Of a DNA stretch of 32,000 nucleotides, positions 7,053 through 20,449 are shown in pieces (positions within the stretch are counted from its first letter, which is position 1; each line of letters starts with the position of its first letter). The DNA lies in NCBI RefSeq assembly GCF_900167445.1, contig NZ_FUZT01000009.1, positions 169,058-201,057 of the forward strand, read 5' to 3'. This DNA is from Maledivibacter halophilus (GTDB lineage Bacteria > Bacillota > Clostridia > Peptostreptococcales > Caminicellaceae). The translations under genes and the position numbers were made by a program. Under the pieces are notes generated by a model. It was given only the letters and a program-made list of their open reading frames with translations. It did not search any database and had not been told where the DNA came from.

Positions 7053-7409
7053 TGAGTTTACAAAAATTCACATATATAAAACCACTATTTTGTATAGACA
7101 GTATTAATGTTTAGCAAATATTATAGTAAAAGCTTAAATACCTCTTTGCTACCTGTTGAAATACTTGTTTTAGATCTTTCAAAGTAGATTTAATTCAATA
7201 ATATTCCATTGATTTGACATAATTTATTGGTTATTTGTCAATAATACTAAACTGATGGTGGATTTAAAGCAGAAAATTTTAAAAAATTTTTTGCTTTCAT
7301 CTTTAGGATATCCTAGAAGAGTTGTTTGTTCAAATAATTAAAATGTAGATTTATTAAACTTTAAAGTTGTTTATGTTTGGAGAATTTTATATGGAAGGGA
7401 GAAAAAAAT

Positions 7410-8396
7410 ATGAAAGAATGTTATTTAGGAGTGGATGTGGGGTCTGTTAGTACTAATATTGTTGTAATGGATTCAAATAAAAGTGTAGTAGACACTTTAT
7501 ATATAAGAACGAAGGGTAAGCCTATAGAAGCTTTGAAAATGGCACTTAGACAAATGAAAGATAGACTAGAAGATGATGTGACTATATCAGGACTAGGAAC
7601 AACAGGGAGTGGAAGACATCTAGCAGCCACCATGCTGGGAGCCGATATTGTTAAGAACGAAATAACGGCCCATGGTGTGGCGGCTCTAAATATTGTACCC
7701 GATGTTAAGACTATTATTGAAATAGGTGGACAGGATTCAAAAATTATTTTACTTAGAGATGGGATCATATATGATTTTGCTATGAATACAGTTTGCGCAG
7801 CTGGAACTGGGTCTTTTTTAGATAGACAGGCTGAAAGACTGGGAATTCCAATACGGGAATTTGGAAGCCTTGCATTAAAATCAAAGTCTCCCGTAAGGAT
7901 AGCAGGTAGATGTGCAGTTTTTGCAGAATCAGACATGATACATAAACAGCAGCTTGGACATAATCAAGAAGATATTATAAATGGGTTATGTGAAGCAATG
8001 GCAAGGAACTATCTCAATAATCTTGGTAAAGGAAAAGATATAAAGCCTCCAGTTGTTTTCCAAGGGGGAGTTGCAGCTAATATAGGAATAAAAAGAGCAT
8101 TTGAAAAATTATTGGGATGTGAAATAATTGTCCCCAAGTTTGCAGGAGTAATGGGGTCAATCGGAGCATGTCTTTTAGCTAAGGACGAGGTAGAAAAAAC
8201 CGGTAAAACTAAATTTTTAGGGTTGGATATTGCAGATAGTACATTCAATGTAAAAAGCTTTGAATGTGATAACTGTCCTAATATGTGTGAAGTAGTTGAG
8301 TTTTATAGAGATGAAAAATTAGTTGCAAGATGGGGAGATAAATGCGGCCGATGGAGTAATGCCCAGTTGAGTCGTGGAGATGAAAAGCTGGCGTAG
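7410..8396 (+). CDS. BadF/BadG/BcrA/BcrD-type ATPase (acyl-CoA dehydratase activase-like, HgdC family)
   Basis: LGVDVGSVSTN, GTTGSGR, IIEIGGQDSK, NTVCAAGTGSF and GRCAVFAESD are the actin-fold ATPase and cluster-Cys motifs of activases. A C-terminal Cys-rich tail (CDNCPNMC...GDKCGRW) follows. The start at ATG 7410 has a GGGAG RBS. Confidence 0.85.
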   Translation: MKECYLGVDVGSVSTNIVVMDSNKSVVDTLYIRTKGKPIEALKMALRQMKDRLEDDVTISGLGTTGSGRHLAATMLGADIVKNEITAHGVAALNIVPDVKTIIEIGGQDSKIILLRDGIIYDFAMNTVCAAGTGSFLDRQAERLGIPIREFGSLALKSKSPVRIAGRCAVFAESDMIHKQQLGHNQEDIINGLCEAMARNYLNNLGKGKDIKPPVVFQGGVAANIGIKRAFEKLLGCEIIVPKFAGVMGSIGACLLAKDEVEKTGKTKFLGLDIADSTFNVKSFECDNCPNMCEVVEFYRDEKLVARWGDKCGRWSNAQLSRGDEKLA

Positions 8397-8426
8397 AGGT
8401 CAGAAGTTAAATTACGGAGGTGGGAT

Positions 8427-9434
8427 ATGTTTGTAAAAGTTGGTATTCCAAGGGCACTTCTTTATTATGAATATTGTAAATTATGGATATCTTTTTTTGA
8501 AAATCTAGGTACCAAGGTTATAATATCAGAAAAAACAAATAAGGAAATTCTTGATAGAGGGGTAAAAAATACTGTTGATGAGGCATGTTTACCAGTTAAG
8601 ATTTACCACGGGCATGTTTTGAATTTAAAGGACAAAGTTGATTTTATTTTTACGCCGAGAATAGTAAGTGTTAATAAATATGAATATATTTGTCCTAAAT
8701 TTTGTGGACTACCTGAAATGATAAAATATTCCGTTAAGGGGCTGCCTCAGTTTATTGATACTACAATAGATTATAGAAAGTCAAGAAAAAATTTTAATAA
8801 GACAATTATGGAGATAGGAAATTATATTACCAAGGATAAAAATAGGATCAAATTTGCCTTTGAAAATGCCCTCAAAAAGCATAATGAATATAAGTCTCTC
8901 ATAAAAAAAGGTTTATTACCTATTGATATATTAAAAGGAGAGAACTATGAAGAAAATATTAATGAGGGTAAAGAAAAAGTTGTACTTTTAGGACATCCAT
9001 ATAATATATATGATTCCTATTCAAGTATGAATATTGTCGAAAAGCTCAGGAAGTACAATCTTTCAGTTGTAACTTGTGATACTTTAGATGAAGATGTTAT
9101 TAATCACAAAGCAAAAGAGTTAAATAAGAAGATGTTTTGGAGTTTTGGAAGAAAGATTCTTGGAACTGCTTTGTATTCAATTGATGATGAAGAAGTTTGC
9201 GGAATTATTTACCTTTCGTCCTTTGGATGTGGGTTGGATTCTGTTATAGCTGATGTTGCTGAAAGAAGAATAAGAAGAAACTCGAAAAAACCCTTTACCA
9301 TGCTAACCATAGATGAACATACTGGAGAAGCAGGGTTAGATACAAGAATAGAAGCTTTTGTAGATATGATTAAATGGAGGAAAAAAAATGAAAATAACTT
9401 TTCCCCACATAGGGAATACATATATCCCCATTAA
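8427..9434 (+). CDS. Activase-associated protein (DUF2229-like / 2-hydroxyacyl-CoA dehydratase-fold subunit)
   Basis: The N-terminal motif VGIPRALLYYEY..W..FF..LG is typical of the domain that follows the ATPase in long 'CoA-substrate-specific enzyme activase' proteins. The C-terminus TIDEHTGEAGLDTRIEAFVDM is paralogous to the end of the next gene. Confidence 0.7.
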   Translation: MFVKVGIPRALLYYEYCKLWISFFENLGTKVIISEKTNKEILDRGVKNTVDEACLPVKIYHGHVLNLKDKVDFIFTPRIVSVNKYEYICPKFCGLPEMIKYSVKGLPQFIDTTIDYRKSRKNFNKTIMEIGNYITKDKNRIKFAFENALKKHNEYKSLIKKGLLPIDILKGENYEENINEGKEKVVLLGHPYNIYDSYSSMNIVEKLRKYNLSVVTCDTLDEDVINHKAKELNKKMFWSFGRKILGTALYSIDDEEVCGIIYLSSFGCGLDSVIADVAERRIRRNSKKPFTMLTIDEHTGEAGLDTRIEAFVDMIKWRKKNENNFSPHREYIYPH

Positions 9435-10488
9435 AGCAATGTTTGACGATTTGGGGGTAGAAACGGTGATTCCACCGAGATGCAGTAAGAAGACATTAGA
9501 ACTAGGAACAAAATATGCTCCAGAGTTAATATGTTTGCCTCTTAAAATAAATTTGGGAAATTATTTAGAAAGTATTGAAAAGGGAGCAGATACAATAGTG
9601 ATAACAGGGGGCTGCGGTCCTTGTAGATTTGGTTATTACTCCGAAGTTCAAAGGGAGATATTAAAAGATTTAGGCCATGATGTTGATATAATTGTACTTG
9701 AAGCACCTCAGGGAGATAAAAAGGAATTTTTCCGTAGAGTTAGCAAAATTTCAAATACAAAAAATATTATTAAAATAACTAAAAGCTTAAAAAATGCAAT
9801 TGTAATATTAAAAAAGTTAAATAAGCTTGAGGAGATAGTTCTTAAAAATAGGCCATATGAGATTAATAAAAATGAAATTAACAATTTATATAGTGGTCTT
9901 ATTAAAAAATTAGAAAAGAGTACTGGCTCTAAGGAAATGACATATTATCTCAATAAAGCCTTGAAGGAAATAGATGAAATACCACTGGATAAAAATAGAG
10001 ATGTTTTAAAAGTTGGTATAGTTGGTGAGATATATACAGTAATAGAAGATTTTTCAAATTTGGACATCGGTAAAAAGTTAAATGAAATGGGTGTAGAAGT
10101 CCATAAATCCCTTAGCACTGGAGAATGGATTACTGAGATGTTGTTTTATAGAAGTTTAGGGCTATCAAATGAAAGGAAAATATGGAATGCAGCAGATCCC
10201 TATGTAAAAACCTGTATTGGGGGACATGCCAGAGAGACAGTTGGCAATACAGTATTGTACTCTCAAAAAGGATATGATGGAGTTATACAGCTAATGCCTT
10301 TTACTTGTATGCCAGAAATTGTTGCAATGAGCCTTATGCCAAGTATACAAGCTGAAAACAATATTCCCGTACTATCTCTAATTATAGATGAAATGACTGG
10401 AGAAGCAGGATATCTTACAAGACTTGAGGCATTTATTGATTTACTTAGGAATAGGAAAGAAAATCCAAAATATAACAGAGCTTTGTAA
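9388..10488 (+). CDS. 2-hydroxyacyl-CoA dehydratase family protein (HgdB/D-component-like)
   Basis: MKITFPHIGNTYIPIKAMFDDLG, CLPLK and GGCGPCRFGYY motifs, with C-terminal IIDEMTGEAGYLTRLEAFIDL. GGAGG precedes ATG 9388. The gene overlaps the upstream gene by 47 nt. Confidence 0.75.
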   Translation: MKITFPHIGNTYIPIKAMFDDLGVETVIPPRCSKKTLELGTKYAPELICLPLKINLGNYLESIEKGADTIVITGGCGPCRFGYYSEVQREILKDLGHDVDIIVLEAPQGDKKEFFRRVSKISNTKNIIKITKSLKNAIVILKKLNKLEEIVLKNRPYEINKNEINNLYSGLIKKLEKSTGSKEMTYYLNKALKEIDEIPLDKNRDVLKVGIVGEIYTVIEDFSNLDIGKKLNEMGVEVHKSLSTGEWITEMLFYRSLGLSNERKIWNAADPYVKTCIGGHARETVGNTVLYSQKGYDGVIQLMPFTCMPEIVAMSLMPSIQAENNIPVLSLIIDEMTGEAGYLTRLEAFIDLLRNRKENPKYNRAL

Positions 10489-11032: not shown

Positions 11033-11721
11033 TTGATTTGTTACATACACCATTATTTGGAGTTATTATTTCAATAATAGCTCTTGAAATAGGATTATAT
11101 ATAAATAGAAAAACAAAAATTTCTCTATTAAATCCTTTATTAATTAGTATAGTTCTAATTATAGTAATTCTTATTAAGTTTGATATATCCTTAGAGGCAT
11201 ATAATGAAGGTGGAGGTCTAATATCCTTTTTTCTAGGTCCTGCCACGGTTATATTAGCGGTTCCCTTATATAAACAGTTTGAAATTTTTAAAGCTAATAT
11301 ACTTCCTATAATTGTTGGTATAACTGTAGGATGTCTTACTTCAGTAATTAGTGTGGTATTTTTATCAAAATTATTTGGTCTATCAGATGATATACTTAGA
11401 TCATTGATTCCTAAATCAATAACTAATCCTATAGGAATTGAATTATCAAAGCAAATAGGGGGGATACCTTCTATTACTGTAACAGCAATAATCATTACAG
11501 GAATATTCGGATCTATAATTGCACCTTATGTATTTAAAATATTTAGAATTAAAGACAAAGTTGCTATTGGCGTGTCTTTGGGTACCTCATCCCATGCATT
11601 GGGAACGACAAAGGCCATAGAGATGGGGGAAACAGAAGGGGCCATGAGTGGTCTTTCTATTGGTTTAGCGGGATTAGTAACGGTGATTTTAATTCCTTTA
11701 TTAATTAACCTGTTGTGCTAG
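11029..11721 (+). CDS. lrgB: LrgB/CidB-family membrane protein
   Basis: 230-aa polytopic protein with GPATVILAVPLY and SLIPKSITNPIG motifs typical of LrgB. The last 5 codons lie inside repeat element B. Confidence 0.85.
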   Translation: MIDLLHTPLFGVIISIIALEIGLYINRKTKISLLNPLLISIVLIIVILIKFDISLEAYNEGGGLISFFLGPATVILAVPLYKQFEIFKANILPIIVGITVGCLTSVISVVFLSKLFGLSDDILRSLIPKSITNPIGIELSKQIGGIPSITVTAIIITGIFGSIIAPYVFKIFRIKDKVAIGVSLGTSSHALGTTKAIEMGETEGAMSGLSIGLAGLVTVILIPLLINLLC

Positions 11722-11888
11722 TTTCCATATCAGGAGTTTTAATATTTCCTTTTAGTTCATGCTATAAACCTGTTTTTTCATATAGCTTTTAAGGAAGAAA
11801 CAGGTTCATAAAAATCACTCAAATGAAATATTAAAACTCCCTAAGTTATATTTTAAACAAAAATTTGATTTACTAGCACAAAGGGTTA
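11706..11888. repeat. Palindromic intergenic repeat element, long nested copy (B)
   Basis: The outer arms are TAACCTGTTGTGCTAGT (11706-11722) and ACTAGCACAAAGGGTTA (11872-11888). A perfect 16-bp inner inverted repeat GGAGTTTTAATATTTC (11733-11748) / GAAATATTAAAACTCC (11825-11840) lies inside them. A central hairpin AACCTGTTT (11767-11775) / AAACAGGTT (11798-11806) lies inside that. Confidence 0.7.
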
Positions 11889-11946
11889 ATTGAGATAATT
11901 GTATAATTCTAATTTGGGACAATTGCATAATATATACAGTAGTTTT

Positions 11947-12168
11947 CTAAAGATTTTTATTATAATTCATTAATTCTTTTTCTCCCATTTCAACCAGCTT
12001 TTTAGTCATATGTCCACCTACATATCCTCCATAAAAAACATTTTTACCAGAATCAAGACCACTTTCATTAGTTAAAAGATTCTTAGTTATTCCCAATTCA
12101 TTAGCTATTTCATACTTCATTTCATTTAATGCCTTCATTGCGTTTGGATCTACAGGACCTTTAGCCAT
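11947..12168 (-). CDS. Alpha/beta-type small acid-soluble spore protein (SASP)
   Basis: 73 aa. MKYEIANELGI and GGYVGGHMTKKLVEMGEKEL are hallmark alpha/beta SASP motifs. An RBS GAGAGGTG lies upstream. Confidence 0.9.
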   Translation of the reverse strand: MAKGPVDPNAMKALNEMKYEIANELGITKNLLTNESGLDSGKNVFYGGYVGGHMTKKLVEMGEKELMNYNKNL

Positions 12169-12416
12169 TATATTTTCACCTCTCTTATCAATATTTCTTA
12201 TATATTATTTTTTTAGGATTTCCTTTTGTTCATACTAGGTAATAAAAGGTTATTAATGATATCATAATGAATATAAATTTTTCATTACTGCTATTTTAAT
12301 CTTTTGATATAGTGAAACTAATTCAAAGATAGATTTATAAATCTTAAAAAATTGCAGAAGCATCGATATTTTTAAAATCTATAAATTAAGTTTTGAGATT
12401 GTTTCACTATATTAAG

Positions 12417-12445
12417 TTGAAGGAAAAAAGTAAATGTGTTATAAT
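12417..12445 (+). promoter_or_regulatory. Sigma-A-type promoter of the yhfZ-like operon
   Basis: TTGAAG (12417-12422), a 17-nt spacer, then TATAAT (12440-12445) with an extended -10 TGT at 12437-12439. It lies 50 nt upstream of ATG 12495. Confidence 0.6.
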
Positions 12446-12453
12446 AATTATAC

Positions 12454-12477
12454 AATATACAAAAGAATGTATATTGA
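12454..12477 (+). promoter_or_regulatory. Palindromic operator-like motif, copy 1 (AATATACAAAAGAATGTATATTGA)
   Basis: Inverted repeat CAATATAC-N8-GTATATTG between the -10 box and the RBS of yhfZ. It matches the copy at 13449-13472 at 22 of 24 positions. Confidence 0.5.
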
Positions 12478-12494
12478 TGAGAGGTTGAATATTT

Positions 12495-13433
12495 ATGAGT
12501 AATTATAAAAAGAAGCTGATGTCTAAAAATGGAAAAATAACAATGCAGCTTGCAAAGGAAATGCTAACTTTTCAAGTTGGAGATAGAATAAGTACGGTTG
12601 GTCAATATTCTAAAAGATTTGATACTGCTAGAGGAACTGTTCAATCTGCATTGAAGTTTCTTCAAGAAATTAAAGCAATAGGATTAGAATCTAGAGGGCA
12701 TTTAGGAACATATATTATTAAAATAAATTATAAAAAGCTTTGGGAAGTATCGGATTTTGGGGTTATAATGGGAGTAATGCCTTTGCCCTATTCAAAGAGG
12801 TATGAAGGCCTTGCAACTGGACTTTATAGTGCATTTGAAAAAGGTGGTATACCATTTAGCTTGGCATTTATGAGAGGTGCTGCAAAGAGAATAGAAGCAC
12901 TGACATCAGGAAGATATAATTTTGCTGTTATATCAAAATTAGCAGCCACATTAGAAATGAGAAAATCCTCTGATATAGAAATTGTTTATGAATTTGAAGA
13001 AGGTAGTTATGTTGGAAATCATGTTATTATTTTTAGAGATGACAAGGAAAGTAAAATATGTGATGGAATGAGGGTAGCATTAGATACAACATCTATAGAT
13101 CAAATTATATTAACTTCCTATGAGTGTGAAGGAAAGGATGTAGAATACATCGATACTCCTTATAATCAGATTTTACAAAAGCTAAAAAATGATGAAGTTG
13201 ATGCAGCAATTTGGAATGTGGATGAAATACAAGAAAAAAATCTTGAGTATAATATCTATCCTTTAACAAATCCTAAGACGAGGGAAATTGATAAAGAAGA
13301 CACCATTGCTACTATAGTTATAAGTAAGGGTAATCTAGAGTTTAGAGACATTTTTAAGAAATTTATTAAAATGAAAGAAGTAGAAGAAACACAAAAAAAG
13401 GTTATAGATAATCATATGATTCCTATATATTAA
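12495..13433 (+). CDS. yhfZ: YhfZ-family regulator (GntR-like winged HTH plus YhfZ C-terminal ligand-binding-like domain)
   Basis: The N-terminus ..RISTVGQYSKRFDTARGTVQSALKFLQEIKAIGLESRGHLGTYI fits a GntR-type wHTH. Size (312 aa) and operon context (followed by yhfY/U/T/S/X/W homologs) fit YhfZ. Confidence 0.75.
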   Translation: MSNYKKKLMSKNGKITMQLAKEMLTFQVGDRISTVGQYSKRFDTARGTVQSALKFLQEIKAIGLESRGHLGTYIIKINYKKLWEVSDFGVIMGVMPLPYSKRYEGLATGLYSAFEKGGIPFSLAFMRGAAKRIEALTSGRYNFAVISKLAATLEMRKSSDIEIVYEFEEGSYVGNHVIIFRDDKESKICDGMRVALDTTSIDQIILTSYECEGKDVEYIDTPYNQILQKLKNDEVDAAIWNVDEIQEKNLEYNIYPLTNPKTREIDKEDTIATIVISKGNLEFRDIFKKFIKMKEVEETQKKVIDNHMIPIY

Positions 13434-13448
13434 GTTTTTTTTAAAATG

Positions 13449-13472
13449 AATATACAAAAAAATGTACATTGA
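13449..13472 (+). promoter_or_regulatory. Palindromic operator-like motif, copy 2 (AATATACAAAAAAATGTACATTGA)
   Basis: The same 24-nt motif as at 12454-12477. It again ends 15-17 nt upstream of a start codon (yhfY, ATG 13488), immediately before the RBS. Confidence 0.5.
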
Positions 13473-13487
13473 AAAGGAGAAAAGAAA

Positions 13488-13853
13488 ATGGATAAACCAT
13501 TAAAGGAAAGATTAGAGATTCTAAAGCAGGCAGGAGAAATAAGTGATGAAATAATGGGTGTTGTTATAGAATTTATAAAAAATTTTGAGAAAAAATATTC
13601 ATTAGAAATTAATGAAGAAAATGGATCTATGCTTATTACTCACCTTTCCATGGCCCTGGCAAGGATAAAAAGAGGAGAAGAAATTGATGGAATGGATGAA
13701 TCAGTTCTAAATGAAATAAAACAAAATCCAATTTATGGGGAACTTCCTGAGTTTTATGATGAGATTGAGAAAAAATTACAAATTAAGATACCAGATTCTG
13801 AGAGAGGATTTATAGCAGCCCATGGATCTATATTAATAGATAAATGCAAATAA
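13488..13853 (+). CDS. yhfY: YhfY-like PRD-domain protein
   Basis: 121 aa and helical. The segment ...LITHLSMALARIKRGEEI... resembles a PRD. Position after yhfZ matches the E. coli yhfZ-yhfY pair. Confidence 0.65.
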   Translation: MDKPLKERLEILKQAGEISDEIMGVVIEFIKNFEKKYSLEINEENGSMLITHLSMALARIKRGEEIDGMDESVLNEIKQNPIYGELPEFYDEIEKKLQIKIPDSERGFIAAHGSILIDKCK

Positions 13854-14020
13854 TCTACAGGTGTTAGTATAGATCAAAATTTGATAATAAAAAAGCCACA
13901 TATGTTTTTTCATAGAGATTATGTTTTTTATAAATTTATAATACTTTAGAGTTAAACATCTATTGGTAGTTATGTAGCATTTAAAAATAAACTAAAATAG
14001 TCAAGGAAAGAGGTGAGTAT

Positions 14021-14383
14021 ATGATTAAGATTGTAGTTGGTGGAGCAATTGATAAACAAAATATTGCTAAGATTATAGAAGGAATAGGAGGGAAAGATGT
14101 AAAGGTTGAAATAAAATCAGATATAGAAGCTGCAATGGCAGTTAAAACTGGTACTGCTGATTATTACTTTGGGGCATGTAATACAGGTGGTGGCGGAGCT
14201 CTTGCAATGGCAATAGCTTTGTTAGGAGCAGGTAAATGTGCTACCCTATCGATGCCTGGTAAAGCACCAGAGGAAGAGAAAGTTATTGAAGCAATAAATA
14301 AAGGTAAAGTTGCATTTGGATTTACAAATGAACATATTAATCAAGCAGTACCTATGATTTTAAAGCTTATAATAAATAAATAA
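14021..14383 (+). CDS. yhfU: YhfU-like protein (DUF2620)
   Basis: 120 aa. AAMAVKTGTADYYFGACNTGGGGALAMAIALLG closely resembles the recalled E. coli YhfU core (..YYIGACNTGAGAAL..). RBS GAGGTGA. Confidence 0.75.
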   Translation: MIKIVVGGAIDKQNIAKIIEGIGGKDVKVEIKSDIEAAMAVKTGTADYYFGACNTGGGGALAMAIALLGAGKCATLSMPGKAPEEEKVIEAINKGKVAFGFTNEHINQAVPMILKLIINK

Positions 14384-14397
14384 AGAGAGGGATTGTC

Positions 14398-15681
14398 ATG
14401 AGGTATATTCTAATTTTTTTAACAGGAGCAGTGGCTTCAATGTTAGCAAATAGAGGAATAGCAATATTTAATGATGCGGTTAGGCCTATTATTCCCGAAT
14501 TCAAAGAAGGTAGAATGAAAAGATCAGAATTAGCAGCTACAACATTTGCTTTAAGTATTGGGTTGGTTATTGGATTTGGTATTCCTTTTTCTATAATGTC
14601 CCCAATTATTTTGATTCATTCATTATTTTTAGGCACAGATATAATTGGAACATTTTTTCATGGAGAACCAAGCAATAATTGGCTAAAGGATAAGAAAAGT
14701 GTAAGGGGATTCATATTATCAGGACTTGCCGGTGGAGTTTATGGACTTCTATTACTCATAGGATTAAAGTGGTTTGTTGATGGAATTCAAAAATTACCGG
14801 TAAATGTGTTTGATGCTTTAGGTGGACTAGGAGATCCAGTTATATTTGCATTTGCTGCCTTTCCTCCCTTGGCAATAGCATTTGAATATGGCTATAAAAA
14901 GGGGATATTTTCTTTGGGGATTGTTTTACTAATAAGACAGATTATTGAAAGGTTAGGATATGGAAGTCCTGATGGATGGGCATTATTAGCAGGATTTATA
15001 ATTCTTATGTTATTTGCTATAAAAGAAAAGAATGAAAGTAACGTAGATACTGCATCCTTATTTGTTGATAGGGTTAAAAATATAAGAAAGAATATGGTAT
15101 GGATTGCTATTATGGGTGCTTTATATGGTATGTCCTGTAATATAAATCTATTGATGGAAGGACCACAATCTTTATTAGCTTTAAAAGAAGGGTTAAAATC
15201 TGATGCTGTAAACTTTAGCTTAGCGAGAGCATTATCCTTCATACCATTAAAAGGGACAACTTCTTTGGCAACTGGGACATTTGTTACTGATGGTTTTGGA
15301 TTTGTTGCTACAGTTGGTATATTAGCACCTAATATTATAATAGCTGGTATCTTAGGTGCTGCAGTAATTTCTTTGGAGGCATCTAGTTTATTGGTATTTG
15401 CAAGATTTTTTGATAGATTTCCTGGAATCAGAAAAGCGGCAGATAATATAAGGAGTGCAATGTCCAAATTATTAGAGGTGGCTTTAATTGTGGGATCAAT
15501 GCTGGCTGCTAATAATATTGCACCAGGGGTTGGATATTTTGTTGTGGCAGGATTGTACTTGCTTAATGAAACTGCAAAACGACCATTGGTTAAGATGGCA
15601 GTTGGACCTATTGCAGCTATTCTTGTTGGAATCATAGTTAATATTTTAGCGTTAATAGGATTATATATGCCAGCAGCTTAA
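14398..15681 (+). CDS. yhfT: YhfT-like polytopic membrane transporter
   Basis: 427 aa with about 10-12 TM helices. The N-terminus ..ANRGIAIFNDAVRPIIPE resembles YhfT (..AHRSAAVFHDGIRPILPQ). It follows yhfU with a 14-nt gap. Confidence 0.75.
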   Translation: MRYILIFLTGAVASMLANRGIAIFNDAVRPIIPEFKEGRMKRSELAATTFALSIGLVIGFGIPFSIMSPIILIHSLFLGTDIIGTFFHGEPSNNWLKDKKSVRGFILSGLAGGVYGLLLLIGLKWFVDGIQKLPVNVFDALGGLGDPVIFAFAAFPPLAIAFEYGYKKGIFSLGIVLLIRQIIERLGYGSPDGWALLAGFIILMLFAIKEKNESNVDTASLFVDRVKNIRKNMVWIAIMGALYGMSCNINLLMEGPQSLLALKEGLKSDAVNFSLARALSFIPLKGTTSLATGTFVTDGFGFVATVGILAPNIIIAGILGAAVISLEASSLLVFARFFDRFPGIRKAADNIRSAMSKLLEVALIVGSMLAANNIAPGVGYFVVAGLYLLNETAKRPLVKMAVGPIAAILVGIIVNILALIGLYMPAA

Positions 15682-15723
15682 TTTATCTAATCAAATTATT
15701 AGAATAGTAGAAAATATACTTAG

Positions 15724-15761
15724 CTACAAAACCATGGAACTGCTAGTCCGTGGTTTTGTAG
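15724..15761 (+). other. Intra-operon stem-loop between yhfT and yhfS
   Basis: CTACAAAACCATGG (15724-15737) pairs with CCGTGGTTTTGTAG (15748-15761): 14 bp with 1 mismatch and a 10-nt loop. No U-tract follows. Confidence 0.5.
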
Positions 15762-15802
15762 TTGAGAATAGTATATAAAGAAACTTTTAAGGAGAATTAA
15801 TT

Positions 15803-16897
15803 ATGAAAACATATCCAATAAAAGCAATAGATTTTGAGAAAGCAAAAAAAATGCAATTTAAATTAGTAGACATTATCCATCAAAATTTTGATGGATATGA
15901 ATTTCTTCAAGATGGAGATTATGGAGTTGTACCAGGAGTTGGGCAGCCAAGATATACCCAAAAAGTAGAAAGAGTTTTAGCACAGTTTTTTGGAGCAGAG
16001 GAGGCTGTATTAGTTAGAGGATCTGGAACAGGTGCTATTAGAAATGTAATGAATGGAGTATTAAAGCCCAATGGGAAAATATTACTTCATAAAGCTCCCA
16101 TTTATCCTACAACTAAAATTATTGTGGAATCAATGGGACTTGAACCCCAATATATAGATTTTAATAAAATTTGTGATATAAAAATTGAAGATCTTTCTCA
16201 TATATCCTTTGTACTTATTCAACATTCAAGACAGAAGCTGGAGGATAGATATGACTTAAATGAAGTTATTAATAAACTAAAGAGTGTAAATAATGATATG
16301 ACCATATTGGTTGATGACAATTATGTAGTTATGAAGGCAGAAAAAATAGGAGTACAGCTTGGAGCAGATGTAAGTGCTTTTTCACTTTTTAAGCTTTTAG
16401 GGCCTGAAGGGCTAGGGTGTGTTGCTGGCAAAGGAAGCATAATAGATAAAATAAGACAAATGAATTATTCAGGAGGGAGCCAGGTTCAGGGACATGAGGC
16501 GATGAATGCTTTAAGGTCATTAGTATATGCTCCAGTATCCTTAGCAATACAAGCTGAAGAAGGAAATAAAATAGTCTATAGATTAAACTCAGGAGAAGTA
16601 AGGGGAATAAAATCTTCATTTATTGCAAATGCACAATCAAGAGTTGTTTTAGTAGAATTTGAAAAACCAATAGCTAAAGATGTGCTTAAATATAGCTCTA
16701 AGTTAGGGGCGGCTCCTTATCCAATAGGTGCTGAATCAAAATATGAAGTAACGGCTATGTTCTATAGAGTATCTGGAACTTTTCTCAAATCAAATCCTAA
16801 ATTAGAGGATTATATGATACGTATTAATCCAATGAGGGCAGGTGCAGATACTGTTATTCGAGTATTAAAGGAAGCAATTGATAAGGCATTAGAATAG
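15803..16897 (+). CDS. yhfS: YhfS-like PLP-dependent enzyme (aminotransferase-fold)
   Basis: 364 aa. MKTYPIKAIDFEKAKKMQFKLVD...GVVPGVGQPRYTQKVERVLAQFFGAEEAVLVRGSGTGAIRN parallels the recalled E. coli YhfS N-terminus. Confidence 0.75.
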   Translation: MKTYPIKAIDFEKAKKMQFKLVDIIHQNFDGYEFLQDGDYGVVPGVGQPRYTQKVERVLAQFFGAEEAVLVRGSGTGAIRNVMNGVLKPNGKILLHKAPIYPTTKIIVESMGLEPQYIDFNKICDIKIEDLSHISFVLIQHSRQKLEDRYDLNEVINKLKSVNNDMTILVDDNYVVMKAEKIGVQLGADVSAFSLFKLLGPEGLGCVAGKGSIIDKIRQMNYSGGSQVQGHEAMNALRSLVYAPVSLAIQAEEGNKIVYRLNSGEVRGIKSSFIANAQSRVVLVEFEKPIAKDVLKYSSKLGAAPYPIGAESKYEVTAMFYRVSGTFLKSNPKLEDYMIRINPMRAGADTVIRVLKEAIDKALE

Positions 16898-16908
16898 GGG
16901 GAAACTCA

Positions 16909-18084
16909 ATGTTTTTAGATATGACATTAAAAAGAAATCCAAAGTTAATAAAATATGCTGTTGAATTCCATAGAAAAGCTGAAATTAGACCTAATTCATA
17001 TATTCTAGATATGGATACGATAAAGAGTAATACAGGAAAATTAGTAAAAAGTGCAAAAAAATATGGCATAGAGCTCTATATGATGACAAAGCAAATAGGA
17101 AGAAATCCTCAGATAGCAAGTATTATTGCTGAGGCTGGAATAGAAAAGGCTGTGGCAGTAGATCCATGGGAAGCATTGGCTCTTGGAAGAGCAGGAATAA
17201 AGCTTGGCAATGTAGGTCATTTAGTTCAAATTCCCTTTGGAATGATAAAGGAAATTTTAACCTACAAGCCTGAAGTAATTACAGTATTTACTTTGGAAAA
17301 GGCAGAGGAAATTTCTAAATTAGCCCTAGAGATGGGAAAAAAGCAGGATATTCTTTTAAGAGTTACAGGAACTAAAGATACGGTTTATGAAGGGCAAGTA
17401 GGTGGATTTAAAGAAGAGGAGCTTATACAAAAAGCTGAGGCAATAGAAAAACTAAAGGGAGTAAATATAGTAGGAGTAACTGCTTTTCCATGTTTTTTAT
17501 ATGATTCATATGAAGGGAAGATCCATGAAACAGAAAATGCATATACAGTGGTTAGATGTGCTGAGAAGCTAAAGAGTAAATTGAATATTGATGTTAAACA
17601 GATTAATATGCCGAGTGCAAATGCAATAGCTTCTCTACCTTTAATGAAAGAATTGGGAGCTACCCACGGGGAGCCTGGGCATGCTATAACTGGTACTACT
17701 CCATTACATGGAATTAAAGAACTAGATGAAATTCCTAGTATCGTATATGTTAGTGAGATATCCCATTGCTTTGAAAATAAGGCATATGTATATGGTGGTG
17801 GACATTATAGAAGATCTAATGTAGATAAGGCTATGGTAGGTAGGGATTTTGAGACTATGAAAAATAATGTTTTAAAAGCCCAAGATATATCTCCTGAAGC
17901 TATTGATTATTATGGGACTTTAATAATTGATAATAAGAAGGCCTTAGTAGGAGATACAGCAATTTATTCATTTCGCACCCAAATTTTTGTAACAAGAAGT
18001 GAAGTTGTTCTAGTTGAAGGAATACAAAAAGATATGCCTAAAATAATAGGAATATATGACAGCTTGGGAAAGAAGCTTAGATAA
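16909..18084 (+). CDS. yhfX: YhfX-like alanine-racemase-fold (type III PLP) protein
   Basis: 391 aa. ..YGIELYMMTKQIGRNP.. and ..GHLVQIP.. match recalled YhfX motifs (YGIELYLMTKQFGRNP, GHLVQIP). Confidence 0.75.
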   Translation: MFLDMTLKRNPKLIKYAVEFHRKAEIRPNSYILDMDTIKSNTGKLVKSAKKYGIELYMMTKQIGRNPQIASIIAEAGIEKAVAVDPWEALALGRAGIKLGNVGHLVQIPFGMIKEILTYKPEVITVFTLEKAEEISKLALEMGKKQDILLRVTGTKDTVYEGQVGGFKEEELIQKAEAIEKLKGVNIVGVTAFPCFLYDSYEGKIHETENAYTVVRCAEKLKSKLNIDVKQINMPSANAIASLPLMKELGATHGEPGHAITGTTPLHGIKELDEIPSIVYVSEISHCFENKAYVYGGGHYRRSNVDKAMVGRDFETMKNNVLKAQDISPEAIDYYGTLIIDNKKALVGDTAIYSFRTQIFVTRSEVVLVEGIQKDMPKIIGIYDSLGKKLR

Positions 18085-18097
18085 AGGTCGTGGTAAT

Positions 18098-19321
18098 ATG
18101 AAAAAACGAGCTATTGTATTGATAATAGACAGTTTAGGAATAGGATATATGGATGATGTTAAAAGGGTTCGCCCTCAGGACGAAGGTGCAAATACCTTTT
18201 ATCATATTTTAGATAAATCAAAGGATATAAAAATACCCAATCTAGAAAGATTAGGAATAAATAGAGTCCTTAGACATCCAAGATTAAAGAAAGACATAGG
18301 AATTGCTAGCTATGGAATACTCAATTTACAGCATTATGGTGCTGACAGCTATGCAGGTCATCAGGAGATAATGGGAACTAAACCTAAAAAGCCTTTGATG
18401 AAACCCTTTGTATATTTTATGGATAATGTAAAGGCTGCCCTTGAAAAACAAGGATATAAAGTAGAAATACCTAATACCTATAGACCCTATTTATTGGTGA
18501 ATGAACTGGTTGTAGTTGCAGATAATATAGAAACTGATTATGGACAGATTTATAATATTACAGCACCACTGGATCATATATCCTTTGATGAAGTATTAAA
18601 GATAGGGAAGATTGTTAGGAAGAATGTAAAGGTAAATCGCGTAATAGCTTTAGGTGGAAAAGATGTCTCTATAAAAGAAATTATTGATAGTATAGAAAGA
18701 CGAGAAGATGGACTTATAGGAGTAAATTCGCCAAAATCAGGGGTATATAAAAAAGGATACCAGGCAAGACATTTAGGCTTTGGTGTAAACCCAGAAAAGC
18801 AGATTAGTAGTATTTTATCAAAACTAGGAAAAGAAATTACTCTTATTGGCAAAATGCAAGATGTTATCAAATGTGATAAAGCAAAAAATATACCAGCAGT
18901 GGATACACAGCTGGTTATGAAAGAAATAATAAAACAACTTCACCAAATGAATGAAGGATTGATTTCAGCAACAGTTCAAGAAACTGATTTGGCAGGGCAT
19001 GCCCAGGATGTTGAGCTTTATGCAAAGAGAATAATGTTAGTAGATAAATATTTAGGTATCATCATAGAAAATATGACTAAGGATGATTTGCTTATAATTA
19101 GTGCTGATCATGGTAATGATCCTACAATTGGTCACAGCCAACATACTAGGGAAAAGACTTTTTTACTGGCATATAGTAAAAGATTAAGTAGTAATTATAT
19201 TGGAGAAAGAAAAACACTATCGGATATAGCTGCAACAATTGGTGAGTATTTTAATTCATTATCACCAGAGAATGGACAGAGTTTTTACAGTTCATTAAAT
19301 AAAAAATCTGATATAAGATAG
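18098..19321 (+). CDS. yhfW: YhfW-like phosphopentomutase-family metalloenzyme
   Basis: IVLIIDSLGIGYMDD at the N-terminus and SADHGNDPTIGHSQHTRE near the C-terminus are the alkaline-phosphatase-superfamily/DeoB-like metal-binding motifs. I chose the start at ATG 18098, after the yhfX stop at 18084. Confidence 0.8.
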   Translation: MKKRAIVLIIDSLGIGYMDDVKRVRPQDEGANTFYHILDKSKDIKIPNLERLGINRVLRHPRLKKDIGIASYGILNLQHYGADSYAGHQEIMGTKPKKPLMKPFVYFMDNVKAALEKQGYKVEIPNTYRPYLLVNELVVVADNIETDYGQIYNITAPLDHISFDEVLKIGKIVRKNVKVNRVIALGGKDVSIKEIIDSIERREDGLIGVNSPKSGVYKKGYQARHLGFGVNPEKQISSILSKLGKEITLIGKMQDVIKCDKAKNIPAVDTQLVMKEIIKQLHQMNEGLISATVQETDLAGHAQDVELYAKRIMLVDKYLGIIIENMTKDDLLIISADHGNDPTIGHSQHTREKTFLLAYSKRLSSNYIGERKTLSDIAATIGEYFNSLSPENGQSFYSSLNKKSDIR

Positions 19322-19340
19322 TAATAATAAAATCATATGA

Positions 19341-19378
19341 AAAAAGACCTCTTTTATTTTGACAAGAGGTCTTTTTCT
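19341..19378. terminator. Bidirectional rho-independent terminator
   Basis: AGACCTCTT (19345-19353) pairs with AAGAGGTCT (19364-19372). An A-run lies on the left and a T-run on the right. It sits between convergent yhfW and ORF 19394..19603. Confidence 0.8.
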
Positions 19379-19393
19379 ATTTAAGTAGAAATC

Positions 19394-19603
19394 CTATTCA
19401 AAATCTGAATCTTCATAAAATCGTGATGGGTCTATTATATCTTCGTCCTTTTTCATTGACCAAGGCATAACATATGCGTTTTGCTGTTTGGGTATAATAT
19501 CATAATCATGGGAATTATAACTTTTATCTATTAGATTCATGGCTTCCTTGGCACTAGTATAATCCTTATCCTTTGTGTTTTTTTGTTTTGTCATCTTATT
19601 CAC
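19394..19603 (-). CDS. Small acidic hypothetical protein (69 aa)
   Basis: A good RBS (AAGAGGTGA) lies 7 nt upstream of the ATG, and the terminator is just downstream. I recognise no family. Confidence 0.55.
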   Translation of the reverse strand: MNKMTKQKNTKDKDYTSAKEAMNLIDKSYNSHDYDIIPKQQNAYVMPWSMKKDEDIIDPSRFYEDSDFE

Positions 19604-19907
19604 CTCTTTATTTTAATGGAGTAAGATAATTGCATAATGTATATAAATTTCTAACTGAAATCCCTACAATATTTATTTGTAAATATGAATTAAATATGCA
19701 ATTTTCTCAAATAGTATTTATATTATATTATTTCTTATAAAATAAAAATTATTATAGATAAAACAATTGCATGATTATTCAGATAAATAGTTTTAACTTG
19801 ATTTCTCTATGATTTAAAAATTTTGGTATAATAGTTATATATAACTATGTTGAAATTTAGATTGTGGAGGCTAAATATTATTATGTAAAATTTAAAATTT
19901 TTAGGAG

Positions 19908-20228
19908 GTGAAGAAAATTACATATAATTCTAAATTAGTCACGGATTTTTTAGATGAGTTGTTTGATGCTATTTTACTACTAAAGGATAGAGAAGAATGT
20001 TACAGGTTTTTTGAAGATATTTGTACTATTAAAGAGCTGCAGGCAATATCCCAAAGGCTGCAGGTGGCAAAGCTGCTAAGAGCAGATAAAACTTATCATG
20101 AAGTAGAGAAAATAACCGGTGCAAGCACAGCAACAATTAGTAGAGTAAATAAATGTCTTCTTTATGGTGCAGACGGATACAATATAATATTAGACAGAAT
20201 TGATAAAATGGAAGGGGAAAGTAAATAA
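19908..20228 (+). CDS. yerC: YerC/YecD-family TrpR-like DNA-binding protein
   Basis: LFDAILLLKDREECYRFFEDICTIKELQAISQRLQVAKLL..TY.EVEKITGASTATISRVNKCL matches YerC almost motif for motif. The exact start is uncertain because GTG 19908 abuts AGGAGG. Confidence 0.85.
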   Translation: MKKITYNSKLVTDFLDELFDAILLLKDREECYRFFEDICTIKELQAISQRLQVAKLLRADKTYHEVEKITGASTATISRVNKCLLYGADGYNIILDRIDKMEGESK

Positions 20229-20449
20229 TTGAGTAAATTGCATAATATATGTAAAGAATTTTAAAATTAATAATGTTAATTATGCAAGTTTCTTAATTAA
20301 GTACAATTGAATAAAGGAAAAAAGAGGAGCAGAAATTAGTTTGCAGAAAAAATCTTATAGTGAAAAAGCATGAGGATATCGTAGTCTGTATTAATAATTT
20401 TATATTTATTGAATTTTAGGTATTTATATTTTTAGTATTCATAAAAGTT

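Follow-up and report, generated by a model that had tools for sequence, protein, structure and literature searches.

The 32,000-nucleotide stretch of the Maledivibacter halophilus genome analysed here (contig NZ_FUZT01000009.1, positions 169,058 to 201,057; hereafter the window) contains one self-contained operon of the yhf type with clear limits, in which seven consecutive open reading frames (ORFs) on the plus strand, at positions 12495-19321, encode yhfZ, yhfY, yhfU, yhfT, yhfS, yhfX and yhfW in this order. The php gene that accompanies these seven in Escherichia coli is missing, and comparison with related loci suggests that its absence goes with the type of the membrane protein YhfT. In a reading that could equally well prove right or wrong, the operon may serve the inducible, autoregulated uptake, linked to the phosphotransferase system (PTS), and the breakdown of a compound that has an amino-acid-like centre and a sugar-like or sugar-acid-like part open to phosphorylation.

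The seven genes form a contiguous one-strand set, and each of the seven proteins matches its own family-specific Pfam or NCBIfam model far above the cut-off, with 28-50% identity to the Yhf proteins of E. coli K-12. The preliminary description of the region had named the same seven non-php families, none of which had to be reassigned, and it was also correct in noting a gene order (Z-Y-U-T-S-X-W, by the last letters of the gene names) unlike that of E. coli (Z-Y-X-W-php-U-T-S) and a cluster devoid of php. The E. coli K-12 cluster (b3383-b3376) is otherwise a same-strand array of the same families, likewise headed by yhfZ-yhfY and with U and T adjacent, although its YhfT belongs to another clade. 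The flanks are unrelated to yhf, with lrgA/lrgB and a small minus-strand ORF upstream and a Trp-repressor-family (yerC-like) gene followed by a convergent thiamine operon downstream. A second yhf cluster was ruled out, as the genome contains a single YhfT. Not one of 40 genomes from its family or order carries YhfT, which occurs in 425 of about 185,600 species; the operon is therefore to be regarded as a rare accessory module. A full-text search of the literature on the yhf genes, the operon and related families revealed no assigned pathway and returned only gene lists and unrelated Bacillus subtilis genes of the same names; the two solved structures, Protein Data Bank (PDB) entries 4KBX and 4J8L, were both deposited as uncharacterized.

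The comparison set consisted of the best 80 of 425 YhfT loci, in which the eight families, php included, were placed by tblastn and ORF clustering; ORF calling in these loci was crude, and high-GC (guanine plus cytosine) loci such as L012 were partly mis-called. The enterobacterial order is Z-Y-X-W-P-U-T-S, where P denotes php, and the order in most Firmicutes is Z-Y-U-T-P-S-X-W. The suggestion that the seven genes represent the minimal conserved module had to be abandoned, given that the clusters of Vibrio and several Clostridia are without yhfS and those of Yersinia are without both yhfS and yhfW. The constant core over the 80 loci is instead Z-Y-U-T-X, the Y slot being occupied in L017 and L027 by divergent PRD proteins. 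Clusters without php were found in the window and at eight more loci (from Tissierellales, Clostridia, two Hungatella species, Allofournierella, and an Anaerolineaceae metagenome-assembled genome, MAG), two of which, L007 and L017, end at a contig end. Wherever php is found, it directly adjoins the U-T pair.

The YhfT tree resolves into three groups. Of the 58 rows in the E. coli-type clade, 57 come from loci long enough to judge, and all of these have php; a small intermediate clade is php-bearing too. The clade of the window (16 rows, SH-aLRT 100) holds every php-less cluster; also in it are four yhfT orphans and, from three loci that have two transporters and one php, the second copy of yhfT. 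Identity within this last clade is 56-76%, compared with 35-37% to the E. coli-type clade. In the trees of the enzymes YhfX, YhfS and YhfW, monophyly of the php-less loci was rejected; they are scattered there, and the enzymes of the window lie closest to those of the php-bearing locus L033. Grouped by YhfT and scattered by X, S and W, the php-less loci therefore indicate that the absence of php follows transporter type and not enzyme lineage. Among the systems closest to that of the window are Firmicute clusters of the order Z-Y-U-T-php-S-X-W, such as those of a Tissierellia MAG (L033, with the nearest S, X and W) and a member of the Thermoactinomycetaceae (L038), which share its order apart from php as well as its operator consensus, but have php directly past a yhfT of other clades.

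The lack of php is no chance loss but marks one YhfT clade, and php would belong functionally with the transporter, not with the enzymes. The cluster as a whole behaves as three exchangeable modules, namely control (Z-Y), uptake (U-T, with or without php), and enzymes (S-X-W), and the operon of M. halophilus, probably acquired horizontally, is built from all three. No recurrent gene standing in for php was found in the php-less clusters. Only in L003 is the cluster followed by a NagB/Pgl-like gene and a PfkB kinase; a suspected 2-keto-3-deoxygluconate aldolase there turned out to be an RNase H, and the remaining neighbours of the php-less clusters are transposases, parts of ABC systems, an aminotransferase and an EamA exporter. 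The action of php in trans was considered and rejected, the only phosphotriesterase (PTE)-family gene (PF02126) of the genome being on another contig and belonging to another, glucitol-type PTS system. There (L084:5991-10909, contig 38), a PTE-family hydrolase gene lies approximately 600 bp downstream of a glucitol-type PTS (EIIC, EIIBC, EIIA, GutM) and a GFO/IDH oxidoreductase gene, with an RpiR regulator gene divergent to them, an arrangement that possibly represents a phospho-sugar-lactone pathway. Characterised relatives of Php are phospho-sugar lactonases. Elsewhere, L011 and L019 (Negativicutes/Bacillota MAGs) and L014 (Solobacterium) have two yhfT genes of different clades, one php, one S-X-W set, and an amidase-like gene, and look like natural dual-transporter versions of the yhf system.

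The control module begins with yhfZ (12495..13433, plus strand), whose product combines a DNA-binding domain of the winged-helix type (HTH_41) with an effector domain that is binding-protein-like. Matches to NF041241 (406 bits, cut-off 260) and PF14503 (261 bits), in addition to PF14502 (HTH_41), place the protein in the GntR family as a regulator of the YhfZ type. Its effector domain bears a weak likeness to amino-acid-binding proteins (SBP_bac_3, E 3e-4), and the C-domain residues R132, D197, S200, D202 and W240 are invariant; the invariant arginine, aspartate, serine and tryptophan would suit an amino-acid-like ligand. A promoter-like site (TTGAAG-17-TATAAT, 12417..12445, plus strand) precedes the gene. 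By consensus match only, it scores 10 out of 12, tied for the highest score in the region, and it has an extended -10 TG that no other such site there possesses.

Between the -10 box of this promoter and the yhfZ ribosome-binding site lies the palindrome TATAC-N8-GTATA (O1, 12454..12477), in the position expected of an autorepressor site and proposed to be bound by YhfZ. A second copy, TATAC-N8-GTACA (O2, 13449..13472), is located 37 bp ahead of the yhfY start and is identical to O1 at 22 of 24 positions, and an uncertain, weak third site (13854..13871), matching 9 of 10 half-site positions, is found just past the yhfY stop. A scan of all loci for the TATAC-N8-GTATA core, exact or with 9 of 10 half-site positions, revealed the palindrome in 26 loci ahead of yhfZ, yhfY, yhfU or yhfT, mostly 18-50 bp upstream. 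These loci cover all three YhfT clades, including the orphan yhfT genes of Erysipelotrichaceae, and the density of the palindrome is eight times higher near yhf gene starts (0.27 per kb) than elsewhere in the same loci (0.034 per kb). The extended consensus is TATACAAAATATTGTATA. Among the loci scanned, this AT-rich palindrome turned up in those of the Firmicute type only. It is likely to be the YhfZ operator. Three Erysipelotrichaceae MAGs (L015:9821, L016:9832 and L018:9820) have a lone yhfT with no yhf partners nearby and the exact palindrome 120-180 bp upstream; the neighbours of these orphans are genes for riboflavin kinase and for LOR, DUF2500 and DUF885 proteins.

The second control gene, yhfY (13488..13853, plus strand), encodes a protein of 121 amino acids with a single PRD (PF00874) over residues 28-112 and scores of only 20-36 bits against antiterminator models whose cut-offs are about 300. 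The protein is thus, as had been anticipated, a stand-alone PRD protein devoid of an RNA-binding domain, which sets it apart from the BglG/LicT antiterminators with their CAT RNA-binding domain and two PRDs. R8, H52, R59 and E105 are invariant across 65 homologues, H52 being the single invariant histidine. An Rfam scan of 11700-20300 gave nothing near threshold, and the predicted folding of the yhfY-yhfU spacer is no stronger than that of shuffled sequence (z -0.16); therefore, no PRD target of the ribonucleic antiterminator (RAT) or terminator type is evident.

The uptake module comprises yhfU (14021..14383, plus strand) and yhfT (14398..15681, plus strand), the latter starting 14 nt past the former. 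YhfU, a DUF2620 protein (159 bits), was modelled by AF2 at a pLDDT of 96.5, and the model has the fold of RpiB, the ribose-5-phosphate isomerase of type B. RpiB chains ranked first in Foldseek (TM 0.72), and a second, independent aligner gave Z scores of 12.4, 11.0, 10.9 and 9.1 to RpiB/LacAB over approximately 112 of 120 residues, with entries 3SDW, 3PH3 and 2BES at 12.4-10.9. The EIIB proteins for mannitol, lactose, cellobiose and galactitol formed a second tier (Z 8.8-6.6), and the idea, raised earlier as a question, that YhfU might be EIIB-like is not supported. Residues D34, G51, C53, G56, G58, G95 and G100 are invariant in the YhfU alignment, with Thr or Ser at position 55. Cys53, the sole invariant cysteine, lies past strand 3, and the family profile aligns C53-N-T55-G56 onto the conserved CGTG loop of RpiB/LacAB, which in RpiB carries the catalytic Cys and Thr; in known EIIB proteins, by comparison, the phospho-cysteine is located in an N-terminal P-loop. 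The similarity to RpiB is faint at the level of sequence profiles (PDB matches at E 0.27-0.8), and the LacAB_rpiB Pfam model gave no match up to E 10, DUF2620 and Gly_rich_SFCGS (E 0.023, almost full length) alone being listed.

YhfT is a polytopic membrane protein and presumed permease (PF10797, 462 bits) with an AF2 model of pLDDT 87 and pTM 0.84. No credible relative of this model was found among PDB folds by Foldseek (TM at most 0.22) or by VIA-align (Z at most 6.3, over partial helices, the 427-residue model exceeding the recommended size of the aligner), nor in the ESM Atlas, where everything beyond its own family scored a TM below 0.4; sequence profiles of the PDB likewise revealed no relatives. 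The idea, likewise raised as a question, that YhfT might resemble an EIIC is not supported by these comparisons. Compared with the EIIB/EIIC pairs of the mannitol, lactose/cellobiose and galactitol systems and their PRD regulators, the operon shares a small, cysteine-bearing alpha/beta protein beside a polytopic membrane protein and a PRD protein, but differs in the position of the cysteine, in having no EIIA, and in a membrane protein in which no known EIIC fold was recognised.

A link to the PTS, at which the preliminary description had hinted, gained support from gene neighbourhoods. In Anaerocolumna xylanovorans (L023), the cluster Z-Y-U-T-P-X-W is continued without interruption, on the same strand, by genes first for HPr and next for a complete Enzyme I (ptsH and ptsI, L023:14865-16881), after which comes a fragmentary signalling domain of a methyl-accepting chemotaxis protein. 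With three PEP-utiliser domains, this Enzyme I shares 49% identity with that of M. halophilus. An HPr gene also follows yhfW in L036, and Enzyme I is present in the genome of the window and in all five distant yhf genomes inspected, Chloroflexota and Spirochaetota MAGs included. Pfam and NCBIfam searches detected no EIIA domain or gene among the seven genes. These data support a functional tie to the phosphotransferase relay and fit a YhfU that is a phosphocarrier and one that is an isomerase alike.

The enzyme module is composed of two pyridoxal phosphate (PLP) enzymes of different folds and one metalloenzyme. YhfS (15803..16897, plus strand) is of fold type I, matching PF22475 (YhfS-like_C, 156 bits) and, weakly, the Cys/Met-metabolism and class-V PLP families; its closest structure is 4J8L ("uncharacterized protein YhfS", E 4e-111), and both the putative PLP lysine, K197, and D171 are invariant. 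YhfX (16909..18084, plus strand), the one enzyme found in essentially all complete clusters, is of fold type III with an alanine-racemase fold (PF21279 and PF01168, Ala_racemase_N), the putative PLP lysine K61 being invariant. Beyond 4KBX (E 1e-90), its profile matches in the PDB are all weak and comprise alanine racemase, D-threonine aldolase, D-3-hydroxyaspartate aldolase and D-threo-3-hydroxyaspartate dehydratase, and its sole NCBIfam match, ornithine racemase, is under the cut-off.

YhfW (18056..19321, plus strand) is a phosphopentomutase-like metalloenzyme that scores 571 bits with NF009049 (cut-off 254) as opposed to 148 bits with the deoB model TIGR01696 (cut-off 341); a true deoB (578 bits) is found on another contig of the genome. 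A start at 18056 would overlap yhfX by 29 nt, and 18098 is the more probable start because the ATG there is preceded by AAGG and the NCBIfam alignment begins at residue 17. In phosphopentomutase, motifs of the DS.GIG and ADHGNDP type hold the metal ligands and the Thr of KDT is the phosphorylated nucleophile. YhfW retains both metal motifs but has ADS in place of the KDT of the Bacillus cereus enzyme, and may therefore use a serine. Sugar-phosphate themes recur beside related clusters, with a NagB/Pgl-type gene after yhfW or yhfT in four loci, PfkB kinases in several and a PRK-type kinase in some; an amidase-like gene was seen in four loci.

Among named systems, the EF_0829/AHA_3910 cluster of Enterococcus and Aeromonas offers a parallel in architecture, with its PRD-only protein, glycine-rich SFCGS protein, DUF4310/4311/4312 membrane proteins, SelA-like PLP enzyme and amidohydrolase. 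Weak but concordant cross-matches were obtained for YhfY (TIGR03582, E 6.6e-5), YhfU (Gly_rich_SFCGS, as above) and YhfS (TIGR03576, E 1.9e-10), but the membrane components differ. As all of these matches are under the family cut-offs, the cluster is to be viewed as an analogue or a distant relative, and the operon of the window as no member of it. The D-glucosaminate (dga) pathway and the phospho-sugar lactonases related to Php are further possible parallels to the yhf system.

What the data show directly are the identities of the genes, the limits of the operon, the conserved motifs, the folds, the clades of YhfT and the HPr/Enzyme I genes beside the clusters of relatives. We infer every function beyond family membership, including repression by YhfZ, phosphotransfer, the order of the enzymes and the class of the substrate, and the whole may be assembled as follows. 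YhfZ, bound to the palindromes before yhfZ and yhfY, would repress its own operon until an amino-acid-like effector fills the binding-protein-like domain, and YhfY, via its one invariant histidine, would add an input from HPr of the sugar phosphotransferase relay. YhfT would work with the soluble YhfU, whose Cys-x-Thr-Gly loop may bind or carry a phosphoryl group, and the substrate would probably arrive phosphorylated or be handled at once as a sugar phosphate. YhfW would move or remove the phosphate, probably by way of a serine nucleophile, YhfX would act on a centre like that of an alpha-amino acid, either racemising it or carrying out a D-specific elimination or aldol reaction, and YhfS would remove or transfer the amino group. 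The breakdown of a phosphorylated amino compound, which had been suggested earlier, is a plausible role for the operon. As the YhfT of the window belongs to the php-less clade and php elsewhere always lies beside yhfU-yhfT, the substrate probably enters this subtype in a form that does not depend on hydrolysis by Php, for example one that is open-chain and not lactone- or lactam-like.

How YhfU and YhfT would cooperate admits of more than one answer. An ambitious and rather improbable version is a PTS-fed uptake of a new kind, in which Cys53 of the RpiB-type fold is phosphorylated straight from HPr with no EIIA and passes the phosphoryl group on to the substrate, which would be transported by a membrane protein whose fold has yet to be solved, the php-less YhfT clade being a second specificity class for the ring-opened form of the same nutrient family. 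The main alternative to the favoured reading, possible albeit on a tentative footing, is that YhfT is an ordinary ion-coupled secondary permease and YhfU a cytoplasmic RpiB-type isomerase of sugar phosphates; the PTS would then exert catabolite control by way of YhfY alone, and group translocation would not occur. Having its cysteine at the catalytic position of RpiB, its closest structural relative, YhfU may simply be an isomerase; YhfW is likewise a pentose-phosphate-type enzyme, no EIIA was found in any cluster, and the PfkB or PRK-type kinases beside some clusters could provide the phosphate. Against a free-standing isomerase, however, stand the near-constant position of yhfU directly beside yhfT, which suggests a complex, the length of YhfU (120 residues, some 30 fewer than the approximately 150 of RpiB/LacAB), its failure to match the LacAB_rpiB model, and the HPr and Enzyme I genes appended to one cluster. 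The degradation of a sugar-free compound, be it a plain amino acid (D- or basic) or some small derivative of an amino acid, would assign racemase activity to YhfX, aminotransferase or lyase activity to YhfS and a helper role of the phosphatase kind to YhfW. It would agree with YhfX as the only constant enzyme, with alanine and ornithine racemases as its nearest named relatives, and with the resemblance of the YhfZ effector domain to amino-acid-binding proteins. Yet this leaves three components of sugar-phosphate type to be explained (YhfU, YhfW and, in other clusters, Php), as well as the carbohydrate-type control implied by a PRD protein and HPr/Enzyme I adjacency and the NagB/Pgl-type genes in four loci, and we consider it quite unlikely. 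Least probable is a biosynthetic or salvage cluster, for instance one that makes or recycles some modified amino sugar of the cell envelope. Amino-sugar biosynthesis commonly involves phosphomutases and PLP aminotransferases, and Pfam and NCBIfam matches revealed no terminal aldolase or dehydrogenase encoded in the cluster; nevertheless, inducible catabolism is where a permease of its own, a repressor that senses the substrate and PRD/PTS control are typically met, the distribution is patchy and accessory, and no glycosyltransferase or nucleotidyltransferase lies alongside in the 80 loci.

The PTS-linked uptake and breakdown favoured here has to be weighed against several observations of its own. 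No EIIA was seen in the 80 clusters, in which small ORFs were scanned in part; HPr or Enzyme I genes adjoin the cluster in only two of the 80 loci, and Firmicutes frequently have PTS genes in any case. The cysteine of YhfU is not located where known EIIB proteins have their phospho-cysteine, and comparisons of YhfT with the PDB (Foldseek, VIA-align) and the ESM Atlas gave no match to a known EIIC fold. The loci compared were the best 80 of 425, with a quick maximum-likelihood tree for YhfT and FastTree trees for YhfX, YhfS and YhfW, and the open-chain form put forward to account for the missing php is purely inferential.

Further features complete the picture of the operon and its surroundings. 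The yhfT-yhfS spacer contains a perfect hairpin (15715..15770, plus strand) with a 20-bp core stem that is not followed by a U tract (dG -33 kcal/mol, z -5.55). A genome-wide repeat was ruled out by its single occurrence in the genome, and hairpins unrelated in sequence occupy the same spacer position in L005 (z -5.97) and, more weakly, in L007. The hairpin is possibly an mRNA stabiliser or attenuator that parts the uptake from the enzyme genes and tunes the ratio of their transcripts. An intrinsic terminator (19342..19378, plus strand), with a 12-bp stem followed by a U run (dG -16.3, z -2.76), is found 21 nt past the yhfW stop. The ORF of 73 amino acids between lrgB and yhfZ (11947-12168, minus strand) resembles by eye a small acid-soluble spore protein of the alpha/beta type, and upstream of lrgAB, at 7377-10488, are a three-gene, split activase of the BcrAD/HgdC type and then two DUF2229/HGD-D proteins.

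The yhf operon is among the larger gene blocks of E. coli that are still unexplained, despite solved structures for two of its proteins. The value of the window lies chiefly in the comparison material it provides when set against related loci; from the 80 of them emerge the control, uptake and enzyme modules, a php that would be tied to the transporter, and a concrete candidate sequence for the YhfZ operator. The php-bearing, php-less and two-transporter clusters that occur naturally make a side-by-side comparison possible in substrate screens. Should YhfU and YhfT indeed form a transporter driven by phosphotransfer, they would constitute a new PTS family.

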